From positions 160,423 to 224,422 of the forward strand of contig JAUYMS010000042.1 of assembly GCA_030698625.1 (NCBI GenBank): a stretch of DNA of 64,000 nucleotides. Direction: 5' to 3'. Position 1 is the first letter of the stretch; each line of letters starts with the position of its first letter. The translations under genes and the position numbers were made by a program. Below the pieces are notes generated by a model, which made no database searches, was not told the origin of the DNA, and worked only from the letters and a program-made list of their open reading frames with translations. Origin of the DNA: Candidatus Omnitrophota bacterium (GTDB lineage Bacteria; Omnitrophota; Omnitrophia; Omnitrophales; Aquincolibacteriaceae). Shown piece by piece: positions 5,868 to 25,856 of this stretch.

Positions 5868-8800
5868 TTAGACGATCGTGAATGTGCTGAGGTCAACGGT
5901 GACCGGACTGCTGGTGCCGTCTGCCTTGAGAAGGACATAACTCGCAAAATTCCCTATATAGCGGACTTGTGTGGCCGCCCCGGTCAATACGAGTTTCTGT
6001 CCCGTGTTGGGGTCAATGAGAATGGTTTTGTTGTAAGAGGCGGTCTTCATCGCTACGGTTACCACCAGACGGCCTGTCGTGATCACGTGCGCATCCGCGA
6101 ACGTCGTCTCAAACGGCGGATTCGTGCCGACAACCGGGGCTAACTCCTCGGCATGCAAGAGGGTCATATTCCTCGTACCGTTGGAGGTATCATAAACAAA
6201 CACCTCAGGAGTACCACCCAGGTATTCTGTATGGACAAGAATCGGTTCCCCGTCATCGATATAAACGCTGGCACCCTGTGTGAGCAACTTAAATCCGCCA
6301 AGCGTGGTCACCTTTGTCGCCGGATCAAAAGTTGTGGTTGCTGCCAGCACCGTACCCGTGAAATCGCTCGACTCCTGCAGGAGCAATATCTTGCCGTCTG
6401 CGAAATCGATACCCTTGAGCAATTCGCCGGCGCTCTGGGCCGTAGCGGTGAAAAGGTCCGCAGATGCGAGGTCTTTTATATAGAGGTCATAAGTGTCACC
6501 TTGCGGCCCGGAGGTCTTGGTGCTGTAGACGGCCCATTTGCCGTCCGGAGATACGTCATGAAGCGGCGAAAACGGGGAAGGCCCGCCTTTCGGAACCTCG
6601 ATAGTCAGAAGGTCAATGATGTTGAGCGACGGTCCCGAGGTGTCCAACAACTGCAAGGTGTAGCGGTCATTCGGGCCCGATATTACGACCACATCAACTT
6701 TGAAAGCAAAATCACTGTTCGACGGCGCGAGTTCCCATCCGGAAGGCACGGCCACGGGAACGTTTGTAAAATGCAGGTTCCCCTGCTGCCCATTCCCTTC
6801 AACGATGAAGAACATAAGCTGAACATTTGCCAAATCGATGCCCGCAAACTTCACCGGATCGATCTCCCACACCTGCTCGATATCGGAACGAATTCCATTC
6901 AGATGAACCGAGGCCTTCTTGCCCTGATTGTCGATAAGTTCGAGTTTAACGCGGCTGACATCCCCCATGAGACCCACGGTAAATTTTGAGAGGGTATCAA
7001 AACGTTTAGACCCGGGCGCAAAGGTATAGCCTCCGCCCGTCCATCCCTGCGTCCCCGTATTATAGGCCAGGGTCGTGCCGCGGCCCTGGTAATCCGCCAA
7101 GTTGGAACTTGCATCTCCACCGGGAGATACGCCTTGGATAAAGCCTGTCGGCGAACCGGCGCGGAAATCCACAAGATCATCCAAGCCCAGCGTGTCGGAG
7201 GGATAGACATCGAGATCCGGCAGGTAATTTATCTGCAGCGACCCCACTTCCTGCGGGCCTTCTACGATAAAGTAAATAATTCGAACTTTACTAAGGTCAA
7301 TACCGCCGAGGGCCGAGATGGGAATCTCAAAAACCTGCTCTTTGTCAGGATCTACACCCTCCAAGTAGAGGACCGATCGGTCCCCGCTTGAGTCGAGCAC
7401 TTCGACTTTAACGCGGCTGTTGGTACCCGACAGGTCCTGAAGACCAAAGGCTACCGATTGTAATCCGCTCCAATCGCCCGTTTCTTGGGCGGGATTCGTC
7501 GTAAAATCATCGTAACTAAATCCGCCGCCTGCCCAACCGGCACTCCCTGTATTGTATTCAAAGAGTACGCCTCGCGGCGTGGCAGTGGCCTTGTCGGTGG
7601 CGTTGCCGCCGGGACCGACTGAGGTTATTCCGGGCGCGCCGATCTGGCCGTTCGGAAGGCCGGGAAGATCCGCCGTCGTTAACGTTGTCGAAGGAGTAAT
7701 AACAACGTCCGGTTTGATGCGATTAACAGTCAAACTGCCGTCAATGTTATCCCCTTCCACCACCAGAATAACGAACCGCAGTTTGGTTAGATCAATCCCG
7801 GTAAAAGAAGACATCGGAACTTTCCAAATCTTCTCCTCGCCGGGAACAATGCCGCCTAGTAACACTGAAGACTTCGCTCCAAAAATATCTTCGAGCTCGA
7901 GCTTAACGGTGCCATGATCTCCGAACATACCGAGTACGAGGTTGGTAAAGCCGCTAAAATTGCTAGATCCCACGAAACCCGTCGTGAAATTGTCGAAAGA
8001 AAAGGCCCCGGCTGCCCAACCCGGTGTGCCGGTATCATAATTGATTTGCATACCACGAGCGGTTCCTGCCGTCGTTGACGTCGCATCGGTGCCTGCAGGA
8101 AAGATCGGAAAGGTGAAGGGCCCGCCGTCGGTACCCGCCGGAAACTCGGTGATAGCACGTCCCGTCAATGTAGGGTCGGGCTGAAGAGACGCCGGGGGCG
8201 CATCAATGGCAAAGTTAAAGGTATCCGACCAGAGGCTTCTCGGGCCGGTGTCAAAACTGTTATTCGCAGAGGCTCGTACTCGCACATAATACTGCCCCGC
8301 ATCCGTCACAGGCGCGACTTCTGAAGTTCCCGCCGGAAATCCATCATGGACAATGTCGTTGAAGGCCGGGTCTGTGGCCACCTGCACTTGATAGATCACG
8401 GCACCGCTGACCCCTGAAAAACCGATATCTCGGCCGCCTGATACAGGACCGGCGCCATTAACTGTCGGCTTCGACACAATAAAGGCATTCCGAATGACAT
8501 CAAACGAGAAGGTGTCCGACCACTGACTGAGCGGCCCCACCTCGATGAGGGGATCTTTAGAACCGAGAACGCGCACATAATAGGTTCCGTCCGTCAGAGC
8601 GTCCGTAGAAGGGATCGTCTCGGGCGAAGTGCCCGGGAATCCCTCGTGGATAATGTTGGTGAAACCGGAATCTGTGGCTACCTGAATCCGGTACTTTTGG
8701 GCGTCCTGGATCGGCGTGAACTGGAGTTCCGTTGCACCCTCATGATTCGTCACAGCCGCATCGACCGTCGTTTTTAACGCTGTGAAGGGATCCGGCCCGG

Positions 8801-10025
8801 AAGGCTCCGGAAGATAATAGTCAATACGACCGAGCCGGTTCGGCGAGAGGCCGCGGTCGATCTCAATAATGACTTCTGCGATCTGCGTCTTATCAAATAG
8901 ACCGTCGTCAACAAAGGTAATATAGAAATTGAGAAACACATCCGAGAGATTCATCTCATAGATTTGTTCGTTACCATCTTTATCTCTGACCCGCAAGCGC
9001 GCATCGGCATCGTTCCCGTTATTCTTCAGGGCCATGACCAGGGTACCCCCAAAATCAAAGTATTCATTGGACGCAGGCACGATCTCGGCAGTTACGGTAG
9101 CCCCCGCTGATCCACCGACGTCATAACGAAAACCCCGAATGCCGTCCGGTTGGTCATCGAAGGTAATGAAACCAGGCACCGAGCCTGCTCCGCGGATATA
9201 GGCCCCGGGACTGGCCGTGGTTCCTTGAGGAAACTCGCTTAGCAGCCCTTCGCTGAAGGCCGTCACACCGCCTGCCATCATCGGCACATCAACCCCGCCG
9301 ATGTGCACAAAAATCTCGCCGCGCCGGTCCTGCTGATACGTCGTCGGGTCTATGTCGGCAAAGGTCTGCCGCAAGACCATGCAGGTCACCGCGCCTTCAT
9401 TAAAATTCGAATCCTCGCTCAAATCAATGCTGTAGGTAAGATAGGTATCAGACAAAACGAGCCGCCGCGATGCTTGATTGCCCGTAGAATCAATAAAGAG
9501 GATGGTGAGTTCATCCACGCCGTCGGTGGTGATGTCAAAGTTTTCGCGTTTCAAACGAATGAGGAGAGGCCCGCCGCTTAGGTCCATCGTGGAATTCGCG
9601 CCGACACTGATCTCGGCATCGACCGTGGCGCCTGCGCCGGCACCCAGATCATAGCGATAAGAAAAGAAACTTTCGCTGAAAGGTTTAAACGTGGCGTATC
9701 CCGGTAAGTTCTCTTTGCCCGCCTGAGAATTGTACTTGTGTAATGTCAGCTCCGGATTGCCGGGCAATTTGGAGACGATCGTCGATCCGACTTCTCCATT
9801 GACCTGAGGCGGTGACAAAGGCCCTTCCTCAGTGCCGGCACCCGAAGGAACTTCGGGGTCGGATACACCCGGGTCCTTGCTGGGATCGACGGTCGGCTGC
9901 GGAACACCTGTTGGGCCTAATATTAAATCAGCGTAAGCGGTGGATTGGAATGAAAGCGGCAGTGAATAGAAGAGTAGTGTAAGGGATAAGGACAGTCTTA
10001 GTATTTTGTTTGCAGTAAAACCCAT
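5868..10025 (-). CDS. Giant secreted multidomain protein: signal peptide, Pro-rich linker, about five CBM-like beta-sandwich repeats, two FN3-like modules, and a C-terminal TolB/PD40-like beta-propeller
   Basis: 1385 aa with an N-terminal signal peptide. Repeated ~110-aa modules carry a Y(N/D)TGT(P/Q/S)GW(A/T)GG(G)FxxD(N)F motif. Two modules read YxVxVATDxxFxxIxHxGF. The C-terminus reads SPDGKWAVYS...DLYIKDL, which is PD40-like. Confidence 0.75.
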   Translation of the reverse strand: MGFTANKILRLSLSLTLLFYSLPLSFQSTAYADLILGPTGVPQPTVDPSKDPGVSDPEVPSGAGTEEGPLSPPQVNGEVGSTIVSKLPGNPELTLHKYNSQAGKENLPGYATFKPFSESFFSYRYDLGAGAGATVDAEISVGANSTMDLSGGPLLIRLKRENFDITTDGVDELTILFIDSTGNQASRRLVLSDTYLTYSIDLSEDSNFNEGAVTCMVLRQTFADIDPTTYQQDRRGEIFVHIGGVDVPMMAGGVTAFSEGLLSEFPQGTTASPGAYIRGAGSVPGFITFDDQPDGIRGFRYDVGGSAGATVTAEIVPASNEYFDFGGTLVMALKNNGNDADARLRVRDKDGNEQIYEMNLSDVFLNFYITFVDDGLFDKTQIAEVIIEIDRGLSPNRLGRIDYYLPEPSGPDPFTALKTTVDAAVTNHEGATELQFTPIQDAQKYRIQVATDSGFTNIIHEGFPGTSPETIPSTDALTDGTYYVRVLGSKDPLIEVGPLSQWSDTFSFDVIRNAFIVSKPTVNGAGPVSGGRDIGFSGVSGAVIYQVQVATDPAFNDIVHDGFPAGTSEVAPVTDAGQYYVRVRASANNSFDTGPRSLWSDTFNFAIDAPPASLQPDPTLTGRAITEFPAGTDGGPFTFPIFPAGTDATSTTAGTARGMQINYDTGTPGWAAGAFSFDNFTTGFVGSSNFSGFTNLVLGMFGDHGTVKLELEDIFGAKSSVLLGGIVPGEEKIWKVPMSSFTGIDLTKLRFVILVVEGDNIDGSLTVNRIKPDVVITPSTTLTTADLPGLPNGQIGAPGITSVGPGGNATDKATATPRGVLFEYNTGSAGWAGGGFSYDDFTTNPAQETGDWSGLQSVAFGLQDLSGTNSRVKVEVLDSSGDRSVLYLEGVDPDKEQVFEIPISALGGIDLSKVRIIYFIVEGPQEVGSLQINYLPDLDVYPSDTLGLDDLVDFRAGSPTGFIQGVSPGGDASSNLADYQGRGTTLAYNTGTQGWTGGGYTFAPGSKRFDTLSKFTVGLMGDVSRVKLELIDNQGKKASVHLNGIRSDIEQVWEIDPVKFAGIDLANVQLMFFIVEGNGQQGNLHFTNVPVAVPSGWELAPSNSDFAFKVDVVVISGPNDRYTLQLLDTSGPSLNIIDLLTIEVPKGGPSPFSPLHDVSPDGKWAVYSTKTSGPQGDTYDLYIKDLASADLFTATAQSAGELLKGIDFADGKILLLQESSDFTGTVLAATTTFDPATKVTTLGGFKLLTQGASVYIDDGEPILVHTEYLGGTPEVFVYDTSNGTRNMTLLHAEELAPVVGTNPPFETTFADAHVITTGRLVVTVAMKTASYNKTILIDPNTGQKLVLTGAATQVRYIGNFASYVLLKADGTSSPVTVDLSTFTIV

Positions 10026-17467: not shown

Positions 17468-18103
17468 TCAGGCATTATTATTGCGATAAATACCAACGGC
17501 AAAAATGGCCAGCGTCGCAACAAGTAAAACAAACAAGCCTGCATCCGGTTGAATGGCGGCTTCCTGAACAAAGTTCCTTGTCACAAAACCAAGAACCCCT
17601 TCGCCTGCCCTCTCAACAGCTGCATCAAAACCCTTCACCGCAGCCTGCCCCAAATAATAAACCCCGAACATCGAGTAAGCCGCGCCGATAAGTCCGATCA
17701 GAGAGGTGTAGACCAGCGGACTGCCCCTGCCGAAAGCCGCCAAGAAAAGGCCTCCGATCAAGGAGAGGTAGGTAACGATTAGCGCGACCGGAATCAAGGC
17801 GCCCAAAATAAAGGTTGGGGATAACCGCGTGAGCTCATTGGACTTCTTATCCCGCGGCAAGACCTTCTCCAGTAAGTCCGTAAAATCGTAATCAACCTTG
17901 AAGGATTTTTTTTTGCCGCCGCCGAAGATTTTTTGGGGAAGGGGTTCGAGGATCTGCTGAAGGCTCCAGCTCTTTGTCCCAAGCGGCGCCAGTTTCACCT
18001 GCAGAAGCGGCATAAAGTAGGTGCCGAGCCCCAGAAATAGAAGGATATAGATCGTGACCGTCGTAGTCTTCAGGGTCTGTTGTTTCGTTTTTCGTACCAT
18101 CAC
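17468..18103 (-). CDS. Hypothetical membrane protein (about 3 TM)
   Basis: 211 aa with hydrophobic helices. 4-nt overlap with the downstream receiver. Confidence 0.5.
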   Translation of the reverse strand: MMVRKTKQQTLKTTTVTIYILLFLGLGTYFMPLLQVKLAPLGTKSWSLQQILEPLPQKIFGGGKKKSFKVDYDFTDLLEKVLPRDKKSNELTRLSPTFILGALIPVALIVTYLSLIGGLFLAAFGRGSPLVYTSLIGLIGAAYSMFGVYYLGQAAVKGFDAAVERAGEGVLGFVTRNFVQEAAIQPDAGLFVLLVATLAIFAVGIYRNNNA

Positions 18104-18468
18104 TTGGCTAGCAAGTCCTCGATCGCTTTGAGGAGTTCTTGGATATCAAAGGGCTTCTGAAAAACACGATTAGCTCCCAGCTTCCGCGCCAAGTCTAGAT
18201 AATCCACAGGGATGAGTTTGGCTCCGCCCGACATTGCGATAATGCGGAGGTTGGGAGCCTCCTTCCTCAGGATGCGAATGGTCTCAACACCCTCCTGCTC
18301 AGGCATGAGAAGATCCGTAATAACGAGATCTGCCGCCTTTTCCCGGAACCGATCTACACCTTGTTTTCCGTCGGCGGCCAGAGTTACCTCATAGCCACTT
18401 TCAGTCAGAAAGGTTCCGAGTATCTCGCGAATATCCGTATTATCATCAATCACAATAATGTGCGCCAC
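18100..18468 (-). CDS. Stand-alone response regulator receiver (CheY-like)
   Basis: IIVIDDN...DLVITDLLMPEQEG...KP. REC domain only. Confidence 0.8.
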   Translation of the reverse strand: MAHIIVIDDNTDIREILGTFLTESGYEVTLAADGKQGVDRFREKAADLVITDLLMPEQEGVETIRILRKEAPNLRIIAMSGGAKLIPVDYLDLARKLGANRVFQKPFDIQELLKAIEDLLAK

Positions 18469-18486
18469 AGCTAACTCCTCTTGTTA

Positions 18487-18888
18487 TTACTCGGAATAAT
18501 GAACCGCCAGTGTTCTTTCAACATCGGCAAGAAGTTGGTCAATCTCAAAAGGTTTTGGGATATATCGCTCTGCCATGAGTTCCATAGCCCTGCTGACATC
18601 CTCGGGTTTCTGAGCCCCGGTCATCATAATAACCGGGATATGCTTTAAGGTCTCGTCTGACTTTATCGCCTGCAATGCCTCAAGCCCGTCCATTTCCGGC
18701 ATGGTTACATCCATGAGTATGAGGTGCGGCTTGATCGCCCGAGCCTTGTCGACGGCGTCTTTGCCGTTTATCGCCCCGACAGCTTCATAACCGCTCTCTT
18801 TTAAAACCTCAATAACGACGTCGCGAATCTCCTGTTGGTCGTCGGCGACAAGAATCTTTTTGCCCTGATGCGGGTTTCCTTCTGCCAT
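18487..18888 (-). CDS. Stand-alone response regulator receiver (CheY-like)
   Basis: ILVADDQ...LILMDVTMPEMDG...KP. REC domain only. Confidence 0.8.
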   Translation of the reverse strand: MAEGNPHQGKKILVADDQQEIRDVVIEVLKESGYEAVGAINGKDAVDKARAIKPHLILMDVTMPEMDGLEALQAIKSDETLKHIPVIMMTGAQKPEDVSRAMELMAERYIPKPFEIDQLLADVERTLAVHYSE

Positions 18889-18890
18889 GA

Positions 18891-19784
18891 CTAATAGACC
18901 TCTATCTTCAAACGTTTTTCGGACTTCATTTTTTTGACTAATGACCCCTCAACACCCGCCTCGGCGCCCATTTTATCGAGAACGGGGAGGATCCCCGCCT
19001 CCATCCCTTTTAGACCGCATATAAAAATCATGCTCCGCGGGTTCGTGAGTACCGGCTTAAGATCATCAGCTTGAAGCGCCATCTTGACCTGAACATACAT
19101 TCTGTCGTCCCGCGTCGGAACCTCATCGGGAACAGGATTGATCTCTTCCCGGCTTACGGCCCTATGGTAATGAAAATTTTTATGTTTTCGATAAGATTCG
19201 AACTCTTCATTATAAAAGCCCGTATCTCCATACTTCACGCCGAAAAAAAGCCACACCTGTCCTTTGTACCCGTTAGCAAAGAGCTGCTTCAACATGCCGC
19301 GATACGGTGCAATCCCCGTACCTGTTGCCACAAGCACAAGATCACGGCCTACAGCATCCGGCGGGAGAACGAAATTACGCCCAACGGGGCCGGTTAGGTT
19401 GACTTTATGCCCTGGCTCGAGATCGCATAGATAATTGCTGGCGACACCCGGAGTCTGAACCTGCCCCGGCGTATCACGGCGGAAATGACGCACCACACAG
19501 AGCGAGAGGGTCTGCTGATCTCCGTCGTCACCGGGGCTATCTGAAGCAACGGAATACAAACGCAACTTGTGGGGCTTTCCCGTGGCGGGGTCCGTACCTT
19601 CGGCAAGCACCCCCACACTCTGGCCCGGGGCATAAGGAAATTTCTCTGAATATCGAAAGGTCATGTGCCTCACGTCGAATTCCGCTCCCCGGCTTTCCGC
19701 TGTCAGACGGATATTGCTCAGGGTTTCCGCGCTGAGAGGGGCTTGTAAGGTGAATAAATTTAGGGCTATTTCCTGGGGCATCAA
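18891..19784 (-). CDS. Ferredoxin-NADP+ reductase, plant-type (FNR)
   Basis: RLYSVAS FAD-binding motif, GTGIAP NADP motif, C-terminal ...EVY. Confidence 0.85.
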   Translation of the reverse strand: MMPQEIALNLFTLQAPLSAETLSNIRLTAESRGAEFDVRHMTFRYSEKFPYAPGQSVGVLAEGTDPATGKPHKLRLYSVASDSPGDDGDQQTLSLCVVRHFRRDTPGQVQTPGVASNYLCDLEPGHKVNLTGPVGRNFVLPPDAVGRDLVLVATGTGIAPYRGMLKQLFANGYKGQVWLFFGVKYGDTGFYNEEFESYRKHKNFHYHRAVSREEINPVPDEVPTRDDRMYVQVKMALQADDLKPVLTNPRSMIFICGLKGMEAGILPVLDKMGAEAGVEGSLVKKMKSEKRLKIEVY

Positions 19785-20179
19785 GATTCTAGGAGTATAC
19801 TACCTCTATTGACAGCCCGGCAACGCCCTTTTTACGGGGCATTGACTGCATTTTAACGTTCACAAAGCGATAGAAGCGACCGAAAACAACAAAGAGTGGG
19901 AATTTCCTTCGCCCCTTTATTAAGTCGCTTCCCTCTCAAATAATAATTGTTGTCGGAATATACCGATGTCGTATAATGAACGCGTTTGCAACATTTCTCT
20001 TGCCGCTCTATTCTTTTAACTGAGGAACTTGTAAAGCCAGCGGAAAACGCCAGTACATGATGCATAAAAGCTTTGCTCGGCAGTTCCTGAGATTCTAGTT
20101 CGACTCACAGCCTTTTCCCATTCCCACTCTTCGAGGTCTCCTCGTCACTTCGCTCCTTGCCTTATCCGCTGTTTCCTCT

Positions 20180-21925
20180 ATGCCTGTCGCCTACGCCGAC
20201 TTATTGGGGGATACAAGCGACGAGGACCTTCTAGGTGAACGGAAGAGTGGAAGAGACACTGCCGACGCCACAGATTTAGATGACGCTCGCAAGGCGCACG
20301 AGGAGCTCTTTGCCGAGAATCGTTATCCGTCGGCCGCAACCTGCGCCACTTGTCACGCCAAGCAGTATCGCGAATGGTCGGTTTCTTCACACTCGTATTC
20401 ACAGCTCAGTCCGATCTACATGGCACTCAACAACACGATTAACGTGTTGGCGAGCGGTAGCAACGGCGATTTTTGTTTGCGCTGCCATAGCCAGGTCGGA
20501 GCAAACTTAGGCGAGAATCCCCGCATGTCGAATCTTGAGCGCCACCCGACATCCCGTGAGGGGATTACTTGTACCGTCTGTCACCGTATTAATAAGAAAT
20601 ATGATAAAGTCAGCGGCCGCATCGGCCTTGTTGAGGGCGGCCTGACCGAGCCCATCTATGGTCCTGGTGGCAACAAGATTCTTTCTGAGGTTCTGAGGGA
20701 CCCCAAGTTCAAAGTCGTAACCGATCCGAACCAGCCCGGCCGGAAAATTCACGACGAAGTTAAGTTCTTTGCGCCCATCTCCACATCAACGTTCTGCGGC
20801 TCATGCCATGACGTGACGCTTTTCAATGGCTTCCGTCTGGAAGAGGCCTTCAGTGAATACCGCATGTCCCCCGCGGCGCGGAAGGGCATTAGCTGTCAGG
20901 ATTGCCATATGGGCAAAGTTCAAGGTGTGGTCTCGGGTTATGATTTCGGACCGGCTGCGGTCGTGGGCGGCGTTCCTACCGAATCCAGAAAACTTACAAA
21001 TCATTTTTTTGCCGGTCCCGATTATTCCATCATTCACCCCGGCATCTTTCCTCACAACACCAAAGCTCAGGAGATGGCGACCTTGGAAGAGTGGCTGCGA
21101 TTTGATCACAAGGCCGGCTGGGGTACTGATTCTTTTGAAAATAAAGTCCCGCGCGATTTCAAATTTCCCGACCGCTGGCAGGCCCTTGACGACCGCTATG
21201 ACGCTCGCGCAATCCTCAACGATCAGTTCGAACTCCTGGCATGGGCGCGCGAACGACGGTTAGAGGCCTTGCGCAATGGGTACGGCCTCGGCGAGATCAT
21301 AATCAAGAAAGCGACGTCTTCAGGCATCAAGTTTAAGGTAGAGGTGAAAAACTTGACCAATGGCCACAACGTACCCACCGGGTTCACGGGTGAGCGGCCG
21401 GTTTGGCTTGATGTAACGGTCACCGACAGCGCCGGAACTGTCGTATTTCGGTCGGGCGACCTGGATCCTAACGGAGATTATCGCGACGACCATTCTTCGT
21501 ATGTGCGAACCGGCCGAGTACCTCTCGATACGCATCTATTCACGCTGCAATCGAAGTTTGTGGTCTCCAACATACGCGGGTCAGAGCGCGAACGCGTTAT
21601 CCCTATTCCCTACCCTCTTACGTCCCTTCCGCGCGTGCTGCCCGCACCGCAGTCTTTAGTGATCACGGGCGAGCCGTTTACCGAACGCAATCATCATAAG
21701 GGGATTCAGCCCGATGGTCGCCGCTGGGCGATGTATAAGGTGAAGGCCAAAGCCCTTACCGGGAAAAGTCCTTATAAGGCGAATGTCAAGTTGTGGAATG
21801 CGATGGTGCCGGTCAATCTTGTCGAAGCCATTCAATGGGTCGGGTTTGACTACGGGATGAGCGCCCGCGAAGTCGCCGATAACCTCCCAAAAAGAAATAC
21901 TATGGGAAAAGGATATTGTCATTAA
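20180..21925 (+). CDS. Pentaheme c-type cytochrome: five CxxCH motifs in the N-terminal ~240 aa, then a ~340-aa heme-free C-terminal domain
   Basis: CATCH, CLRCH, CTVCH, CGSCH, CQDCH. No signal peptide follows the annotated ATG, but the 27 codons in-frame upstream encode one (see findings). Confidence 0.8.
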   Translation: MPVAYADLLGDTSDEDLLGERKSGRDTADATDLDDARKAHEELFAENRYPSAATCATCHAKQYREWSVSSHSYSQLSPIYMALNNTINVLASGSNGDFCLRCHSQVGANLGENPRMSNLERHPTSREGITCTVCHRINKKYDKVSGRIGLVEGGLTEPIYGPGGNKILSEVLRDPKFKVVTDPNQPGRKIHDEVKFFAPISTSTFCGSCHDVTLFNGFRLEEAFSEYRMSPAARKGISCQDCHMGKVQGVVSGYDFGPAAVVGGVPTESRKLTNHFFAGPDYSIIHPGIFPHNTKAQEMATLEEWLRFDHKAGWGTDSFENKVPRDFKFPDRWQALDDRYDARAILNDQFELLAWARERRLEALRNGYGLGEIIIKKATSSGIKFKVEVKNLTNGHNVPTGFTGERPVWLDVTVTDSAGTVVFRSGDLDPNGDYRDDHSSYVRTGRVPLDTHLFTLQSKFVVSNIRGSERERVIPIPYPLTSLPRVLPAPQSLVITGEPFTERNHHKGIQPDGRRWAMYKVKAKALTGKSPYKANVKLWNAMVPVNLVEAIQWVGFDYGMSAREVADNLPKRNTMGKGYCH

Positions 21926-23451
21926 TGTCGCCCTGTAAAGGACATTCCGCTTATTACAAGGTTCTGTGTTGTTTTATCGCAGCGGCGATGCTTGTTTCCG
22001 TCCCTCTGCCCCGCTTAGGTTGGGCCGGAGGCGAACATGGCGGAATGGAGCACGGCGGAAGTGAATTTAAAGAACTCCATTCTAATTGGTACGACCCCTT
22101 TTACCCGTTGGGGCAGACGAAGGGTGCTAGCCGGCTCTCTGATGTGCCGGTTCCTTTTCAGGGAGTTGACAAGATACCGCCCCGCCCCAAACTCCATTTG
22201 GAACTCGGAGATCCGTTTCTGGATTCCGGTAATCTCTTCCCGGGTTTTGAATTACCTACGGGAGCCGTTTGGCAGCCGCGTCTTTGGAGTTACATGATTT
22301 ACCGTACCGCCCTACACTCTTTCGAGGTCAACGCGGATAGCCGGACATCGGAATGGGTCCATCGCTTGGACACGTATACTTCCTTGCAGCTGACGGGAAC
22401 CGAAAGAATTTTGGTTTCATTCCGCCCACTCGATAAGAACCGCTTTGATCAGTTTACGCGCTTTGATCTCGAAGATCCCAATAATGACGAGGGCTTCCGC
22501 CAGGAATTCAACTTGAATTTGCGTGCCCTTTTCATGGAAGGTGATATGGGTAGTCTCTTTCCCTTTTTAGATCCCGAGGGCATGCGGCCCATGGATTTCG
22601 GCTTTTCTGTCGGCCGTCAGAACCTCAACTTTCAAGATGGCATTATGCTCAATGACGACATGGATGCCTTGGCAATCGTGCGTAACAATATACGTATTCC
22701 CGCCATCGGTATCTCCAATTTGCGCATAACCGGTATGTGGGCCTGGAAAGGCAATGACCGCGGCGGCGGCATCACACCGCCAAACCGCCGTAGTCCGGAA
22801 GCCGATGTCTTTGGTTTATTCAATTCAGCTGATTTCCACAAGAGCACTATTAACATCGACGGTATCTTCATTTCGGATAATAAGACCAACGGCGGTGATG
22901 CCTTCTATACCGGGGTCTCGTCAATTCAGCGCATGGGTGCCTTCAATACAACGTTCCGCTGGCTGGGATCATATGCCGAAGATTCTACGACGCCGCAGAC
23001 AGGCTCGGGCCAGCTGCTGACGGGAGAAATATCCTGGACTCCGCATTCTTCAGACGACGTTGTCTATTTCAACCCCTTCATAGCCTTTGGCAATTACACG
23101 CAGGCAGGCCGCGAACCTATTCTTGGCGGTCCCCTAGCCCCACTCGGCATTCTCTTTGCATCACCGAATCTCGGCGATTATCGCGGCGAGATCGGCGGGG
23201 CCGCTCAAGATGTCTTTGGCGCGGCAACTGGTTATCAGGCCTTCTGGAATGATCACCACACCAACCTTGTCTTGGAGACCTCTTTCCGCAAGGATTATGG
23301 CGGACGCGGCACAGGCGTTTGGGGCGCTGGTTTTCAGTTGCAGCAGAAATTAGGTCAGCATGTCCAACTTCAGTTTGAAGCCTTCGCCTCTCTGCAAGAA
23401 AACCGCAAACGCGGTTACGGGGGACGTTCGGAAATTCTACTTGTATTCTAG
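21916..23451 (+). CDS. Outer-membrane beta-barrel protein (porin-like), likely partner of the flanking cytochromes
   Basis: N-terminal signal peptide. His/Gly-rich GGEHGGMEHGG segment. Alternating amphipathic beta-strand pattern. C-terminal ...SEILLVF with a terminal Phe, the OMP signature. 10-nt overlap with the upstream cytochrome. Confidence 0.6.
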   Translation: MSLMSPCKGHSAYYKVLCCFIAAAMLVSVPLPRLGWAGGEHGGMEHGGSEFKELHSNWYDPFYPLGQTKGASRLSDVPVPFQGVDKIPPRPKLHLELGDPFLDSGNLFPGFELPTGAVWQPRLWSYMIYRTALHSFEVNADSRTSEWVHRLDTYTSLQLTGTERILVSFRPLDKNRFDQFTRFDLEDPNNDEGFRQEFNLNLRALFMEGDMGSLFPFLDPEGMRPMDFGFSVGRQNLNFQDGIMLNDDMDALAIVRNNIRIPAIGISNLRITGMWAWKGNDRGGGITPPNRRSPEADVFGLFNSADFHKSTINIDGIFISDNKTNGGDAFYTGVSSIQRMGAFNTTFRWLGSYAEDSTTPQTGSGQLLTGEISWTPHSSDDVVYFNPFIAFGNYTQAGREPILGGPLAPLGILFASPNLGDYRGEIGGAAQDVFGAATGYQAFWNDHHTNLVLETSFRKDYGGRGTGVWGAGFQLQQKLGQHVQLQFEAFASLQENRKRGYGGRSEILLVF

Positions 23452-23503
23452 ACAGCCCATACCGTATTGCTATTTCATATCAGTCAAACGAAAGGATAAT
23501 CAT

Positions 23504-24511
23504 ATGCGTCTCTTTACCGCACTGTTATCTGCCATAATATTTTTTGCGAGTCCTGCGACAGCCGCGCAGATGTGGGATCCCATCGCCGATAACGAAAAAA
23601 TTACCGGCCCGGAATCCTGTGCGGAATGTCATGCAGACACCTTTCGAGTCTGGGAAGGGATGCATCACGCCACCACGTTTCGGGATATGCCTCGAAGTGA
23701 CGCGGCCCGTGAAATAGCCGATAAATTGGGCATTCAACGCATCAAAACCGAGCCCTTGTGTCTCAGCTGCCATTTTACGACGATGCTAACGGATACGGGA
23801 AAATCTAAGCCCGTGTCGGGTATTTCCTGTGAATCTTGTCACGGGGCCGGAAAGGATTGGATCAACGTCCACAGTGACTATGGCCCGGGAGCCGATAAGG
23901 ACACAGAGTCTGCTGATCACCGCGCCAAGCGACTTGCCGATTCCGAAGCCGCGGGTATGATTCGTCCGAGAAATCTGCACGCCTGGGCCTCCAATTGCTA
24001 CAACTGTCATACCGTGCCCGACGAAAAACTCGTAAACATGGGGGGACACCCCGCCGGAAGTAAGTTTGAACTTGTGTCCTGGTCTCAGGGAGAAGTGCGC
24101 CATAATGTCTGGTTTTCCGGCGGTGTGGACAATGTAATGGCTACACCCGAACGCAAACGCGTCATGTACGTTACCGGTCAGGCCCTCGACCTCGCATATG
24201 CCCTGCGCGGTCTTTCTAAAGCCACCGAAGGCGCCACCTATGCAATCACCATGGCGAAGAGGGCCAAGGCGGCAATGATCCGTCTCGGACAAATTGATGA
24301 AGCCCTTACCATTCCCGAAGTAAAAGAAATCCTTAAAGTTGCCGACGCCGTCAAGCTCGATCTCAATAATGAGGCTCAGTTGTCCGGCGCCGCTGACGAC
24401 GTTGCAAACCAGGCATTAAAATTTACTGAGGCCCATGACGGAAGTGCGCTTGCCGCATTGGACTCCCTCATTCCTTCGCCGGACGCCTTCCGCGGAACTC
24501 CCGCTGCCTAA
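23504..24511 (+). CDS. Tetraheme c-type cytochrome, secreted
   Basis: Start placed at MRLFTALLSAIIFFASPATAA (signal peptide, RBS AAAGGA upstream). CAECH, CLSCH, CESCH, CYNCH. The track ORF starts further upstream at 23360, inside the OMP gene. Confidence 0.8.
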   Translation: MRLFTALLSAIIFFASPATAAQMWDPIADNEKITGPESCAECHADTFRVWEGMHHATTFRDMPRSDAAREIADKLGIQRIKTEPLCLSCHFTTMLTDTGKSKPVSGISCESCHGAGKDWINVHSDYGPGADKDTESADHRAKRLADSEAAGMIRPRNLHAWASNCYNCHTVPDEKLVNMGGHPAGSKFELVSWSQGEVRHNVWFSGGVDNVMATPERKRVMYVTGQALDLAYALRGLSKATEGATYAITMAKRAKAAMIRLGQIDEALTIPEVKEILKVADAVKLDLNNEAQLSGAADDVANQALKFTEAHDGSALAALDSLIPSPDAFRGTPAA

Positions 24512-24659: not shown

Positions 24660-25856
24660 ATGGAAAATAAATTCTCCCATATTGAAAAGAGGAAATACCG
24701 ACGCAAGCCGACATCCGTGGCTGTCCGTTCCCTAAAAGAGGCGAAACGCGGCCTTTGGAAGCGCGCAAAGGCACTTGATCTTTCAGATACCGGCATACGC
24801 ATTTCCCTGCGCGAAGCGCCCGCTAAGGGAAGCCGCGTGCACCTCTCGCTCAAGTCAGAGCAAGGCAGCCGCCGCAGGCGTGTGGACGGGAAGGTTGTGT
24901 GGAAAAAGGGGCTGGAATGCGGCATACAATTTGAAAACCTTCGAGGAACTCCGAACAACGAGAAGTTGCTATTCTACATGGGCGACCGCATGTGTGAGTT
25001 TGTCGTCAAGTCAGCAGGATCCAATCTTGTCGCGCTGCCCGTTACAACGCTCACGGAGCACAAGGCCGCGTATCGGTTGATGTATCGAGAGTATCTGGCG
25101 CGGGGCTACTGCGCTAAACACGCGTCGAAGATGTACTATACTTCATACAGCTTGCTTCCCACTTCACGCACTTTTATTCTGAAGCAGCAAAAGCATCTCA
25201 TTGGGACGTTGTCCCTCTTTGTGGATTCACCCTGTGGACTTCCCATGGACCACACGGCCCCCGAAGTGACCGGCCAGCTACGCTTTCAGGGGCGACGCGT
25301 TGCAGAGGCAAGCCTCCTTGCCCTTGACCCAAACGCCTTTCGTGAGGGCACTCCCCCGCTTACCTACGCGCATCGCCTCGCGGGTTCCTTCTGGCTGTTC
25401 AAGACTTTGCTGGATTATGCGCGCCAAATCGCCGACGTTACGGATCTCGTCGTAACGGTGCACCCTAACCATGAGCACCTTTACCGCAACCTGGCATTCA
25501 AATCCATAAAACCCGCGACACCCTACGTCTTTGCCCGCGGCCATTTGGGGCTCCCGATGCATTTGGATGTGCGAGAGCTCGAGGCCCATCTTCCCGTCGG
25601 CACATGTTTTAAAAAATTCTTTTTCGACAATCTCCTGCCGTTAGATCAGCTAGCGAAGACTTACCGCTGGACGCCGGTTGCACTAAGTGACTTTATCAAC
25701 AAGCGGCAGGCAGAATGGCCCCAGATGATGCAGGGGGCCGTAGAATGGCTTAAGAGACGTTACCCGCTCGTGGCAGCCAGGACACGGCAAAAGAGCCACA
25801 AGACATCTGGTCTAAATGACAAAGGAGAGCCGCAGCTCTCCTTTGTCGGTATCTGA
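24660..25856 (+). CDS. PilZ domain fused to a FeeM/AHL-synthase-like N-acyl amino acid synthase domain (GNAT-related)
   Basis: N-terminus RKYRRKP...DLSDTGIRIS matches the PilZ RxxxR / D-x-S-x-G-G c-di-GMP-binding motifs. The C-terminal ~270 aa include AAYRLMYREYLARGYC, resembling the conserved core of exosortase-associated N-acyl amino acid synthases (TIGR03694-like). Confidence 0.55.
   Translation: MENKFSHIEKRKYRRKPTSVAVRSLKEAKRGLWKRAKALDLSDTGIRISLREAPAKGSRVHLSLKSEQGSRRRRVDGKVVWKKGLECGIQFENLRGTPNNEKLLFYMGDRMCEFVVKSAGSNLVALPVTTLTEHKAAYRLMYREYLARGYCAKHASKMYYTSYSLLPTSRTFILKQQKHLIGTLSLFVDSPCGLPMDHTAPEVTGQLRFQGRRVAEASLLALDPNAFREGTPPLTYAHRLAGSFWLFKTLLDYARQIADVTDLVVTVHPNHEHLYRNLAFKSIKPATPYVFARGHLGLPMHLDVRELEAHLPVGTCFKKFFFDNLLPLDQLAKTYRWTPVALSDFINKRQAEWPQMMQGAVEWLKRRYPLVAARTRQKSHKTSGLNDKGEPQLSFVGI

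Follow-up and report, generated by a model that had tools for sequence, protein, structure and literature searches.

Does a pentaheme cytochrome gene, followed almost without a gap by genes for an outer-membrane beta-barrel and a tetraheme cytochrome, encode a wire that carries electrons across the outer membrane, or a machine of another kind? The question is raised by a 64,000-nucleotide stretch of a Candidatus Omnitrophota metagenome-assembled genome (MAG), positions 160,423–224,422 of contig JAUYMS010000042.1 (hereafter the window), in which three such genes, here named A, B and C, lie side by side. By composition they belong to PCC4, a putative porin-cytochrome cluster described bioinformatically (He, Barco, Emerson & Roden 2017, Front Microbiol 8:1584; PMC5566968). 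At roughly even odds (a probability of about 0.5), we read A, B and C as the periplasmic and outer-membrane end of a PCC4-type system in which a pentaheme oxidoreductase would be docked on a dedicated substrate channel. The cluster type itself is already known; what is new here is the assignment of A to the PHC fold family, the OprD/AlgE-like fold and Arg-rich lumen predicted for B, and a natural fusion of A to B. Three of these results, namely the PHC fold of A, the 18-strand fold of B and the fusion, favour an NAD(P)H-driven reductase with its own channel over an Mtr-like wire. The genes, in window positions, are as follows.

20180–21925, forward strand: gene A, pentaheme c-type cytochrome of 581 residues (NCBI MDP3921048.1), the 5-heme component of PCC4.
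21925–23451, forward strand: gene B, outer-membrane beta-barrel, the porin of PCC4; its start overlaps the stop of A (TAATG).
23504–24511, forward strand: gene C, secreted tetraheme cytochrome (NCBI MDP3921050.1), the 4-heme component of PCC4.

A preliminary description of the window had proposed three co-directional, nearly abutting genes, and much of what it said of them individually is borne out. All three open reading frames (ORFs) are on the forward strand, and in a motif scan A and C are the sole multiheme ORFs of the window. A contains exactly five CxxCH motifs (cysteines C55/58, C99/102, C131/134, C206/209 and C239/242), all within its first 243 residues, and the remaining C-terminal half is heme-free, as had been described; the one cysteine outside these motifs, C580, is non-conserved. 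For B, the GGEHGGMEHGG motif and the terminal ...LLVF are present as reported, whereas the reported length of 511 residues applies to the ORF list, which opens at TTG 21916; the NCBI protein (P0001, 100% identical) starts at ATG 21925 and has 508 residues. That ATG shares a base with the TAA of A and has GGGAAAAGGA just ahead of it, an overlap typical of translational coupling. The ORF of C opens at 23360, and its real start is ATG 23504, with a ribosome-binding site (RBS), AAAGGA, 7 nt upstream; from there C is 335 residues long and identical to MDP3921050.1. It is the secreted tetraheme protein that had been proposed, with a signal peptide (MRLFTALLSAIIFFASPATA, ending before AQ), four CxxCH motifs in a c554-like heme domain, and an alpha-helical C-terminal domain. 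Membership of the cytochrome c554 family is given by Pfam PF13435 (57.8 bits, cutoff 20.8) and by the match to c554 in the PDB (1BVB, E 3.3e-5); orthology to Nitrosomonas c554 was rejected, the NF043010 score being 35.7 against a cutoff of 400.

The kind of protein that A represents is indicated by its family and fold. A has more than 3000 homologs across phyla (Alphaproteobacteria, Nitrospina and others), the best 120 being 65–77% identical, and the family retains long invariant segments, e.g. CHDVTLFNGFRLEEAFSEYR, which lies between hemes 4 and 5, and GHNVPTGFTGER, within the C-terminal domain; constraint of this degree suits an enzyme better than a wire. The protein is built as a heme cap with the five CxxCH motifs, a long helix, and a beta-sandwich of immunoglobulin-like (Ig-like) type that carries the invariant GHNVPTGFTGER loop; the AlphaFold2 model is confident for the helix and sandwich (residues 300–560). 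Among solved structures, its sole specific relative is the low-potential pentaheme c552 of Thermochromatium tepidum (PDB 5ZE8), which is found by phmmer (E 1.2e-8), by a profile of A (E 7e-12; three collinear pieces, the sandwich loop PHAMPTG included) and by Foldseek (E 3e-6). The two proteins share only 12–14% identity, c552 having 385–435 residues and no assigned function, and we know of no porin partner of c552. A 2025 study groups c552 with Geobacter ExtKL, Gsu2801 and cable-bacteria proteins as the PHC family of pentahemes with an Ig-like domain (PMC11976967). A displays the hallmark of this family, a helical N-terminal cap that holds the five CxxCH motifs and, after it, an Ig-like beta-sandwich, and belongs to the PHC pentaheme fold family.

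One member of that family offers a functional precedent. ExtKL, also named MccSep, is a periplasmic homotetrameric polysulfide reductase composed of a five-heme cap and an Ig-like stem; its catalytic site is heme 2, which Cys239 ligates and beside which Sec325 lies (bioRxiv 10.1101/2025.11.18.688581). The profile of A aligns to MccSep collinearly but weakly (E ~0.04 overall); in this alignment the MccSep loop GHSIPDG-U325 falls on GHNVPTG-F402 of A, and C239 falls on the invariant L220. The active-site Cys (C239) and Sec/Cys (U325) are thus not found in A by this weak profile alignment, and A has no spare conserved Cys. A also scores 34.1 bits against the NCBIfam ExtKL model NF040886, below its cutoff of 250, and is not an MccSep-type enzyme. 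The equivalent pocket in A is invariant, with many Arg, Glu, Tyr and His residues, which suggests a different catalytic site.

The preliminary description took B for an outer-membrane beta-barrel, and that is what is predicted. AlphaFold2, given a 59-sequence alignment, returns a closed beta-barrel (pLDDT 77.8, pTM 0.75) with 19 DSSP strand segments between residues 122 and 510, not a soluble, non-barrel fold. B has no match in Pfam, in NCBIfam or in a profile search of PDB sequences. Many of its homologs are at ~50% identity and share many invariant residues; a profile of B recovers 770 representative clusters at E≤1e-3, 363 of them at E≤1e-30 (among 1.84 billion), and defines a discrete family that does not merge with known porin families. 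In structural comparison the model scores 26.5 with OpdQ/OccK, 23.7–25.5 with OccAB, OpdC, C. jejuni MOMP, AlgE (24.5) and ChiP, and 21.0 with maltoporin, all of which are 18-stranded substrate-specific channels. No MtrB-type chain is among the 60 best structural matches. The model thus places B in the ~18-strand, OprD/AlgE-like class of narrow channels, not in the 26-strand class that sheathes MtrA. The likeness to OprD/Occ, AlgE and maltoporin is structural only, at 6–12% identity and with no match of B to Pfam OprD or Alginate_exp, and B differs from these channels in an extra, highly conserved 60-residue N-terminal segment and in being always paired with cytochrome A.

Two further features of B concern its interior and its N-terminus. 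When the lumen and lipid sides of the strands are assigned by amphipathic register instead of coordinates, the conserved lumen-facing residues comprise 11 Arg, 0 Lys, 4 Glu and 3 Asp, and this putative Arg-rich lumen is reminiscent of the basic ladders seen in anion and carboxylate channels. The mature protein follows a signal-peptide-like N-terminus and ends in ...EILLVF; GGEHGGMEHGG (residues 38–48, about nt 22027–22059, forward strand) comes directly after the signal peptide. This EHGG repeat is lineage-specific, occurring besides the window only in the closest homolog (P0002), in the longer form GEHGGKEHGGEEHGGMAHGRGHDH, and absent elsewhere in the family; it may be a periplasmic metal-binding tail. 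Two other homologs (P0106 and P0248) carry an N-terminal SPOR (peptidoglycan-binding) domain and a ~300-residue linker before the conserved barrel.

Evidence on how A and B are arranged comes from a natural fusion. In one lineage, represented by two assemblies, a single protein of 1098 residues (P0370; L085 8001–11297 and L086 1030–4326) consists of a complete A joined to B. The linker is 45 residues of hydrophilic Pro/Ala/Asp sequence and runs into the mature N-terminus of B, and there is no signal peptide at the junction in any frame. Since the N-terminus of the barrel is periplasmic and a heme-loaded, folded domain cannot thread an 18-strand barrel, the A portion should sit at the periplasmic mouth of B. 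The SPOR-bearing homologs have their periplasmic domain at the same, N-terminal end. The host of the fusion has a GC content of 72%, and downstream of the fused gene lie genes for a 746-aa double-c554 cytochrome and a 539-aa multiheme cytochrome. A second apparent fusion, in which B is joined to FHA/FNR (P0337), looks like a frameshift artefact and is not used.

To what larger system do A and B belong? A scan of one genome per GTDB species yields 244 relatives of B, of which 80 loci were kept, and ORFs were clustered from 83 sources (these 80 loci, two further contigs and the window). By record title, the 80 loci derive from the following hosts.

Alphaproteobacteria (Hyphomicrobiales, Rhodospirillales, Kiloniellaceae, Geminicoccaceae and others): 50 loci.
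Nitrospinota: 17 loci.
Methylococcales: 2 loci.
Flavobacteriales-labelled MAGs: 2 loci.
Hosts unresolved: 9 loci.

A directly followed by B is found in 72 of the 83 sources, and the remaining 11 are attributed, though not case by case, to contig ends or antisense ORF calls. The three genes proposed as a module are supported as a functional unit whose synteny is strongly conserved. Around A and B a set of seven genes recurs, with its components present as follows.

B: 79 loci.
A: 78 loci.
Protein with ferredoxin-NADP+ reductase (FNR) and 2Fe-2S domains: 56 loci.
Cytochrome of ~741 residues: 55 loci.
C: 51 loci.
Protein with cyclic-nucleotide (cNMP)-binding and 4Fe-4S (Fer4_11 = pfam13247) domains: 48 loci.
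Membrane protein of 271 residues: 45 loci.

In Nitrospinaceae the typical order is A-B-C, Fe-S protein, membrane protein, decaheme and FNR protein; another typical order is A-B-FNR, the remaining four genes then being on the opposite strand. In the two loci with the closest relatives of the window's B (L083 and L084; 64–72% identity), all seven genes are in one operon; about nine loci have A and B alone, with no partners nearby. Heme motif counts are well conserved, with five in 71 of 82 homologs of A, four in 51 of 51 homologs of C, and ten in 44 of 56 homologs of the ~741-aa cytochrome, and a complete cluster carries 19 c-type hemes.

The four partners look like a path from the cytoplasm to the periplasm. 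The FNR-2Fe2S protein is membrane-anchored; its FAD/NAD domains most closely resemble the Hmp reductase domain (E 2e-76), and a 2Fe-2S domain stands at its C-terminus. The Fe-S protein (572 aa) combines cNMP-binding domains with a DmsB/HybA-like 4Fe-4S domain and has no export signal. The 271-aa protein conserves W75-x3-H79-x13-H93, S117-G118-x-x-G121 and W248-x3-H252-x13-H266 in 40–44 of 44 sequences; a Pfam ferric-reductase domain is not detected in it. The ~741-aa cytochrome, with ten CxxCH, crosses the membrane by one helix and has on the cytoplasmic side an N-terminus rich in Cys. In three loci (L002 11727–14150, L024 4186–6420 and L051 15030–16925) this N-terminus amounts to ~100 residues with ~12 Cys before the transmembrane helix, and it may provide a further site for a metal or an Fe-S cluster at the cytoplasmic face. 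Genes for adenylate/guanylate cyclases (CHASE2 + Guanylate_cyc) flank the complete clusters L083 (1–3405) and L084 (10867–12396). Together with the cNMP-binding Fe-S protein, these cyclases hint at gating of the electron chain by cyclic nucleotides. When 150 flank ORFs were surveyed with Pfam, no further universal partner or clue to the substrate emerged; the Fe2+/Mn2+ transporter VIT1 was counted six times, cyclases three times and FAA hydrolase seven times, the VIT1 and FAA-hydrolase genes lying in the flanks of L041, L051, L066, L067, L069 and other loci.

This seven-gene set, derived independently of the 2017 work, matches PCC4 feature for feature, as judged by composition and motifs from the description of the 2017 genes. 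PCC4 combines a porin with three multiheme cytochromes of the periplasm, which have 4, 5 and 10 heme sites, and with other redox genes; its inner-membrane protein has five helices, with SGxxG on the fourth and W-x3-H-x13-H on the third and fifth, and a pfam13247 Fe-S gene lies upstream (PMC5566968). Its recorded hosts are Hyphomicrobium, four marine Zetaproteobacteria, other Alpha- and Gammaproteobacteria and Planctomycetes, among them Fe(II)-oxidising Zetaproteobacteria and genomes from Mn/Fe filters, and its proposed role is to conduct electrons to the quinone pool from a donor outside the cell (PMC5566968). The window shows the porin gene adjoining 5- and 4-heme cytochrome genes and differs from PCC4 in having these three genes only, in an Omnitrophota MAG. 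Related loci encode the 10-heme cytochrome in 55 cases, and so do the nearest relatives L083 and L084, but it is absent from the window; the five-helix protein and the pfam13247 gene are likewise absent from the window, and in related loci the motifs are exactly those of PCC4. The window is thus a partial member (A, B and C) of an already described cluster type in a new host phylum. In the literature that could be searched, only one later paper uses the name PCC4, and a search on cytochromes of Nitrospina, Omnitrophota, nodules and Thioclava found nothing relevant beyond a passing remark, in a 2025 study of MAGs from the Oslofjord tunnel, that such multiheme clusters of Nitrospinaceae are of unclear role; several of those MAGs are represented in the loci studied here.

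Several broader claims of the preliminary description change accordingly. That the genes encode a porin-cytochrome complex is the published hypothesis for the cluster type (PMC5566968), and the module was thus not undescribed, as had been thought probable. The kinship it drew with the Mtr, Mto and Pio systems or with Geobacter Oma-Omb-Omc does not hold, B lacking any Pfam or NCBIfam match and A and C scoring far below the cutoff of the DmsE/MtrA model. The small number of hemes is also less unusual than described, given the total in a complete cluster and the pentahemes that Geobacter Ext clusters also contain. The suggested electron-transfer module survives as a porin-cytochrome module of published type, whereas an electron-conducting sheath is made improbable by the PHC fold, the class of B and the A-B fusion.

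How might such a system work? A would be a periplasmic pentaheme oxidoreductase of the PHC family seated at the periplasmic mouth of B, and B a ~18-strand, Arg-lined channel through which a small, probably anionic or membrane-impermeant substrate or product would cross the outer membrane to or from A. Electrons would not cross the outer membrane through B; C would serve as a c554-like tetraheme shuttle that feeds A. In complete clusters, electrons would pass from NAD(P)H to the membrane-anchored FNR-2Fe2S protein, then to the cytoplasmic 4Fe-4S/cNMP protein, the five-helix di-heme-b protein and the membrane-anchored decaheme, and the system would work as a reductase. We infer this direction because the donors are cytoplasmic (the FNR-2Fe2S and 4Fe-4S proteins lack export signals) and outward flow from NAD(P)H would be downhill and with the membrane potential, whereas the reverse would be strongly uphill. 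PCC4 as proposed is an electron conduit to the quinone pool, whereas the evidence here favours a periplasmic reductase, a substrate channel and a link to NAD(P)H.

That electrons would not travel through B is suggested by the fold class of B, by the A-B fusion, and by the globular cap-and-stem build of A, whose solved relatives are soluble periplasmic proteins and which has 115 residues per heme; MtrA has ~33 (333 aa, 10 hemes). A and B appear to be the core unit because of their constant adjacency, their coupled stop and start codons, the roughly nine genomes with A and B alone, and the conserved N-terminal 60 residues of mature B. Candidate substrates are oxyanions of S, Se, N or halogens, chelated Fe(III) or Mn(III), and O2. 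The Arg-rich lumen and pocket would favour a small anion, and the bias of hosts to Fe/Mn-rich habitats keeps chelated metals or O2-derived species in play.

Other observations weigh against a reductase on its own channel. The heme half of the model of A is poor (pLDDT <50), and the weakness of the MccSep alignment makes the inference of a catalytic site in A tentative. The strand count of B, 18 ± 2, comes from a predicted model, and the register-based assignment of its lumen is crude. The window's own copy has an interrupted leader in A, and neither tblastn nor, for the 10-heme protein, a motif scan found the decaheme, di-heme-b (271-aa) or cNMP/Fe-S genes in the 64 kb. In Nitrospinota, A (and apparently B) has a lipobox and A is predicted to be a lipoprotein with a long linker, which would fit a surface or outer-membrane site too. 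Hosts are enriched in Fe/Mn-rich habitats, including MAGs of Fe-Mn-rich biofilms and crusts (OFTM, MnTg02), as would fit mineral redox. Finally, the Geobacter OmbB-type porins form an electron-transferring complex and yet are predicted to be small (~20 strands), so that barrel size alone does not exclude a conduit.

Some of these points feed directly into the published alternative, a true trans-outer-membrane conduit in which A or C is held in or against B, electrons move to or from extracellular Fe or Mn minerals, and the 10- and 4-heme proteins bridge the periplasm. It has in its favour a gene content that mirrors a full extracellular electron-transfer pathway (a module in the inner membrane, a shuttle in the periplasm, and a barrel with a cytochrome at the outer membrane), hosts that include Fe(II)-oxidising Zetaproteobacteria, Hyphomicrobium, Mn/Fe filter genomes and Fe-Mn biofilm and crust MAGs, the Nitrospinota lipoproteins with their long linker, a tight A-B coupling and an A-B fusion that recall Cyc2, and the small predicted size of the Geobacter Pcc porins too. 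We nevertheless consider it unlikely. B belongs with the 18-strand substrate channels, no sequence kinship links the proteins to MtrB/PioB or MtrA/DmsE, and the sparse hemes and cap-and-stem shape of A, with soluble periplasmic relatives, are those of a globular protein. Most homologs of A, that of the window included, have an ordinary signal peptide without a lipobox, in P0370 the A portion must stay periplasmic, and the NAD(P)H link points to a reductase and fits poorly with energy-conserving Fe(II) oxidation. A third family of ideas gives A a more unusual role, either as a NOX-like source of superoxide released through the Arg-lined B or as a cytochrome filament like the distantly related archaeal AvECN. 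The FNR flavoprotein and the di-heme-b protein with its two H-x13-H motifs recall the NOX/FRE architecture, the conserved lumen of B is predicted to be Arg-rich, some hosts come from Mn-oxidising settings, and the PHC fold has been reported to be related to the archaeal nanowire AvECN (PMC11976967). Against these entirely indirect indications stand the absence of a NOX-type fusion and of a Pfam ferric-reductase domain in the 271-aa protein, the inability of a filament to pass an 18-strand barrel, and the A-B fusion, which speaks against polymerisation; we regard such roles as very improbable. Scarcely less of a long shot is a version in which all of PCC4 is a quinone-independent NOX-like machine, with NAD(P)H electrons travelling outward by way of FNR-2Fe2S and 4Fe-4S, and then of two b and 14 c hemes, as far as a pentaheme enzyme on an Arg-lined channel, where O2 or a small acceptor would be reduced and a charged product, e.g. 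superoxide, released.

A separate question, compatible with either mechanism for the family, is whether the copy in the window still functions. The following features lie upstream of A.

20057–20179, forward strand: broken leader of A, recognised in the sequence and by alignment to the N-termini of the closest homologs.
19950–19977, forward strand: promoter-like site, TTGTCG-16-TATAAT (10 of 12 positions in a consensus scan), a weak pattern match within the 272-bp divergent intergenic region upstream of A.

The broken leader begins with ATG ATG (20057/20060), the only upstream ATGs, and after 11 codons meets an in-frame TAG at 20096–20098. The 27 sense codons that follow (20099–20179) encode a signal-peptide core, ...LRGLLVTSLLALSAVSSMPVAYA, that ends in AYA directly before the DLLGD of A, and the closest homologs of A all have a signal peptide that ends just before (D)DLLGD. 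Between the TAG and ATG 20180, where the NCBI coding sequence begins without a signal peptide, there is no ATG, GTG or TTG start. The listed ORF of A has no signal peptide; the core of one lies just upstream, cut off by the TAG. The interruption could be due to an assembly error, to a recent nonsense mutation or to a start at ATT 20120, which would yield a normal 26-residue signal peptide. Pyrrolysine or another reassignment of the stop codon was considered, and there is no evidence in support of it.

It is possible, though doubtful, that this copy is decaying, with A unexported through the nonsense codon in its leader and the inner-membrane partners lost; we rate this slightly above the conduit. 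The TAG with no canonical start before ATG 20180 supports it, as do the absence from the 64 kb of partner genes that are present in the same operon in the nearest relatives, and the last ~15 residues of A, which depart from the family consensus. Conversely, A, B and C are free of further stops and frameshifts, all family-invariant residues checked are kept, identity to the nearest relatives is 72–77%, and the RBS and the stop-start coupling are intact. The TAG itself could be an assembly error or be bypassed by a start at ATT 20120, about nine other genomes also have A and B without nearby partners, and the source contig extends to 253 kb, so that partners may lie outside the window.

Next to the three genes, and divergent from A, lies a reductase gene.

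18891–19784, reverse strand: ferredoxin-NADP+ reductase of PetH (plant) type, without a 2Fe-2S domain, divergent from A.

This gene was rejected as the FNR partner of PCC4. The true partner resembles the Hmp reductase and carries a 2Fe-2S domain, whereas the PetH-type protein of the window lacks that domain, is only 30% identical to the partner over 153 aa and is not its ortholog, so that the gene is doubtful as a member of the module. Two stand-alone receiver-domain-like ORFs of 122 and 133 aa, judged by sequence, and a 211-aa membrane ORF without a Pfam match (together at 18100–18888 and 17468–18103, reverse strand) lie between this gene and one for a dual-specificity phosphatase. Directly downstream of C, at 24660–25856 (forward strand), a PilZ domain is fused to a FeeM-type N-acyl amino acid synthase domain, an unusual pairing; in other genomes this gene is no part of PCC4. 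Farther away, at 5868–10025 (reverse strand), is a 1385-aa ORF with no Pfam match at E≤0.001.

What hangs on the choice of mechanism extends beyond this window, whose own value is modest as a partial and possibly damaged copy in a new host phylum. PCC4 is widespread in Nitrospinota nitrite oxidisers, marine Hyphomicrobiales and Rhodospirillales, and Methylococcales, as well as in Zetaproteobacterial iron oxidisers (PMC5566968). It is cited as a candidate route of extracellular electron transfer, and genome surveys count such clusters as metal redox capacity. If a reductase with its own channel is the correct reading, annotation of these clusters as Fe/Mn conduits would be misleading, and ecologically important marine chemolithoautotrophs would possess a new periplasmic redox activity. 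Were the NOX-like version true, it would supply a molecular basis for extracellular superoxide and for superoxide-driven Mn(II) oxidation in marine and Mn-filter bacteria.

Comparison with known systems places PCC4 among several partial analogues. MtrCAB, MtoAB and PioAB and the Geobacter OmaB-OmbB-OmcB complex resemble it in having a barrel beside multiheme cytochromes and further cytochromes that reach the inner membrane, but there is no sequence homology, and the PCC4 module has no extracellular decaheme. MtrB is a 26-strand barrel that sheathes a 10-heme wire; B, of the 18-strand class, has no match to the MtrB/PioB family of barrels (Pfam MtrB_PioB; 26 or more strands), and with the MtrA/DmsE model TIGR03508 (cutoff 192) A scores 30.9 bits and C 15 bits. 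PCC4 also resembles Fre-MsrQ-MsrP and NOX/FRE, where NAD(P)H electrons reach a periplasmic reductase by way of a cytoplasmic FNR-family flavoprotein and a membrane protein that bears two H-x13-H heme-b sites; PCC4 differs in interposing Fe-S, 10-heme and 4-heme carriers, and these inner-membrane components are absent from the window. The Fe(II) oxidase Cyc2 shares with P0370 an N-terminal cytochrome and a small C-terminal barrel, through whose pore the substrate and not the electron would pass, but it has a single heme on a short domain, whereas A is a five-heme, two-domain protein of ~560 residues, and no sequence relation is detected. The extHIJKL cluster of Geobacter sulfurreducens differs in its inner-membrane module, which is Rieske/cytochrome b where that of PCC4 is FNR/Fe-S/di-heme-b. 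It places the porin gene extI next to the catalytic periplasmic pentaheme ExtKL (MccSep), with the same cap-and-stem build as A, and loss of the ExtI porin impairs selenite and tellurite reduction (PMC5877670). By analogy, the ExtI-ExtKL pair probably follows the logic proposed here for A and B, that of an enzyme on its own channel.

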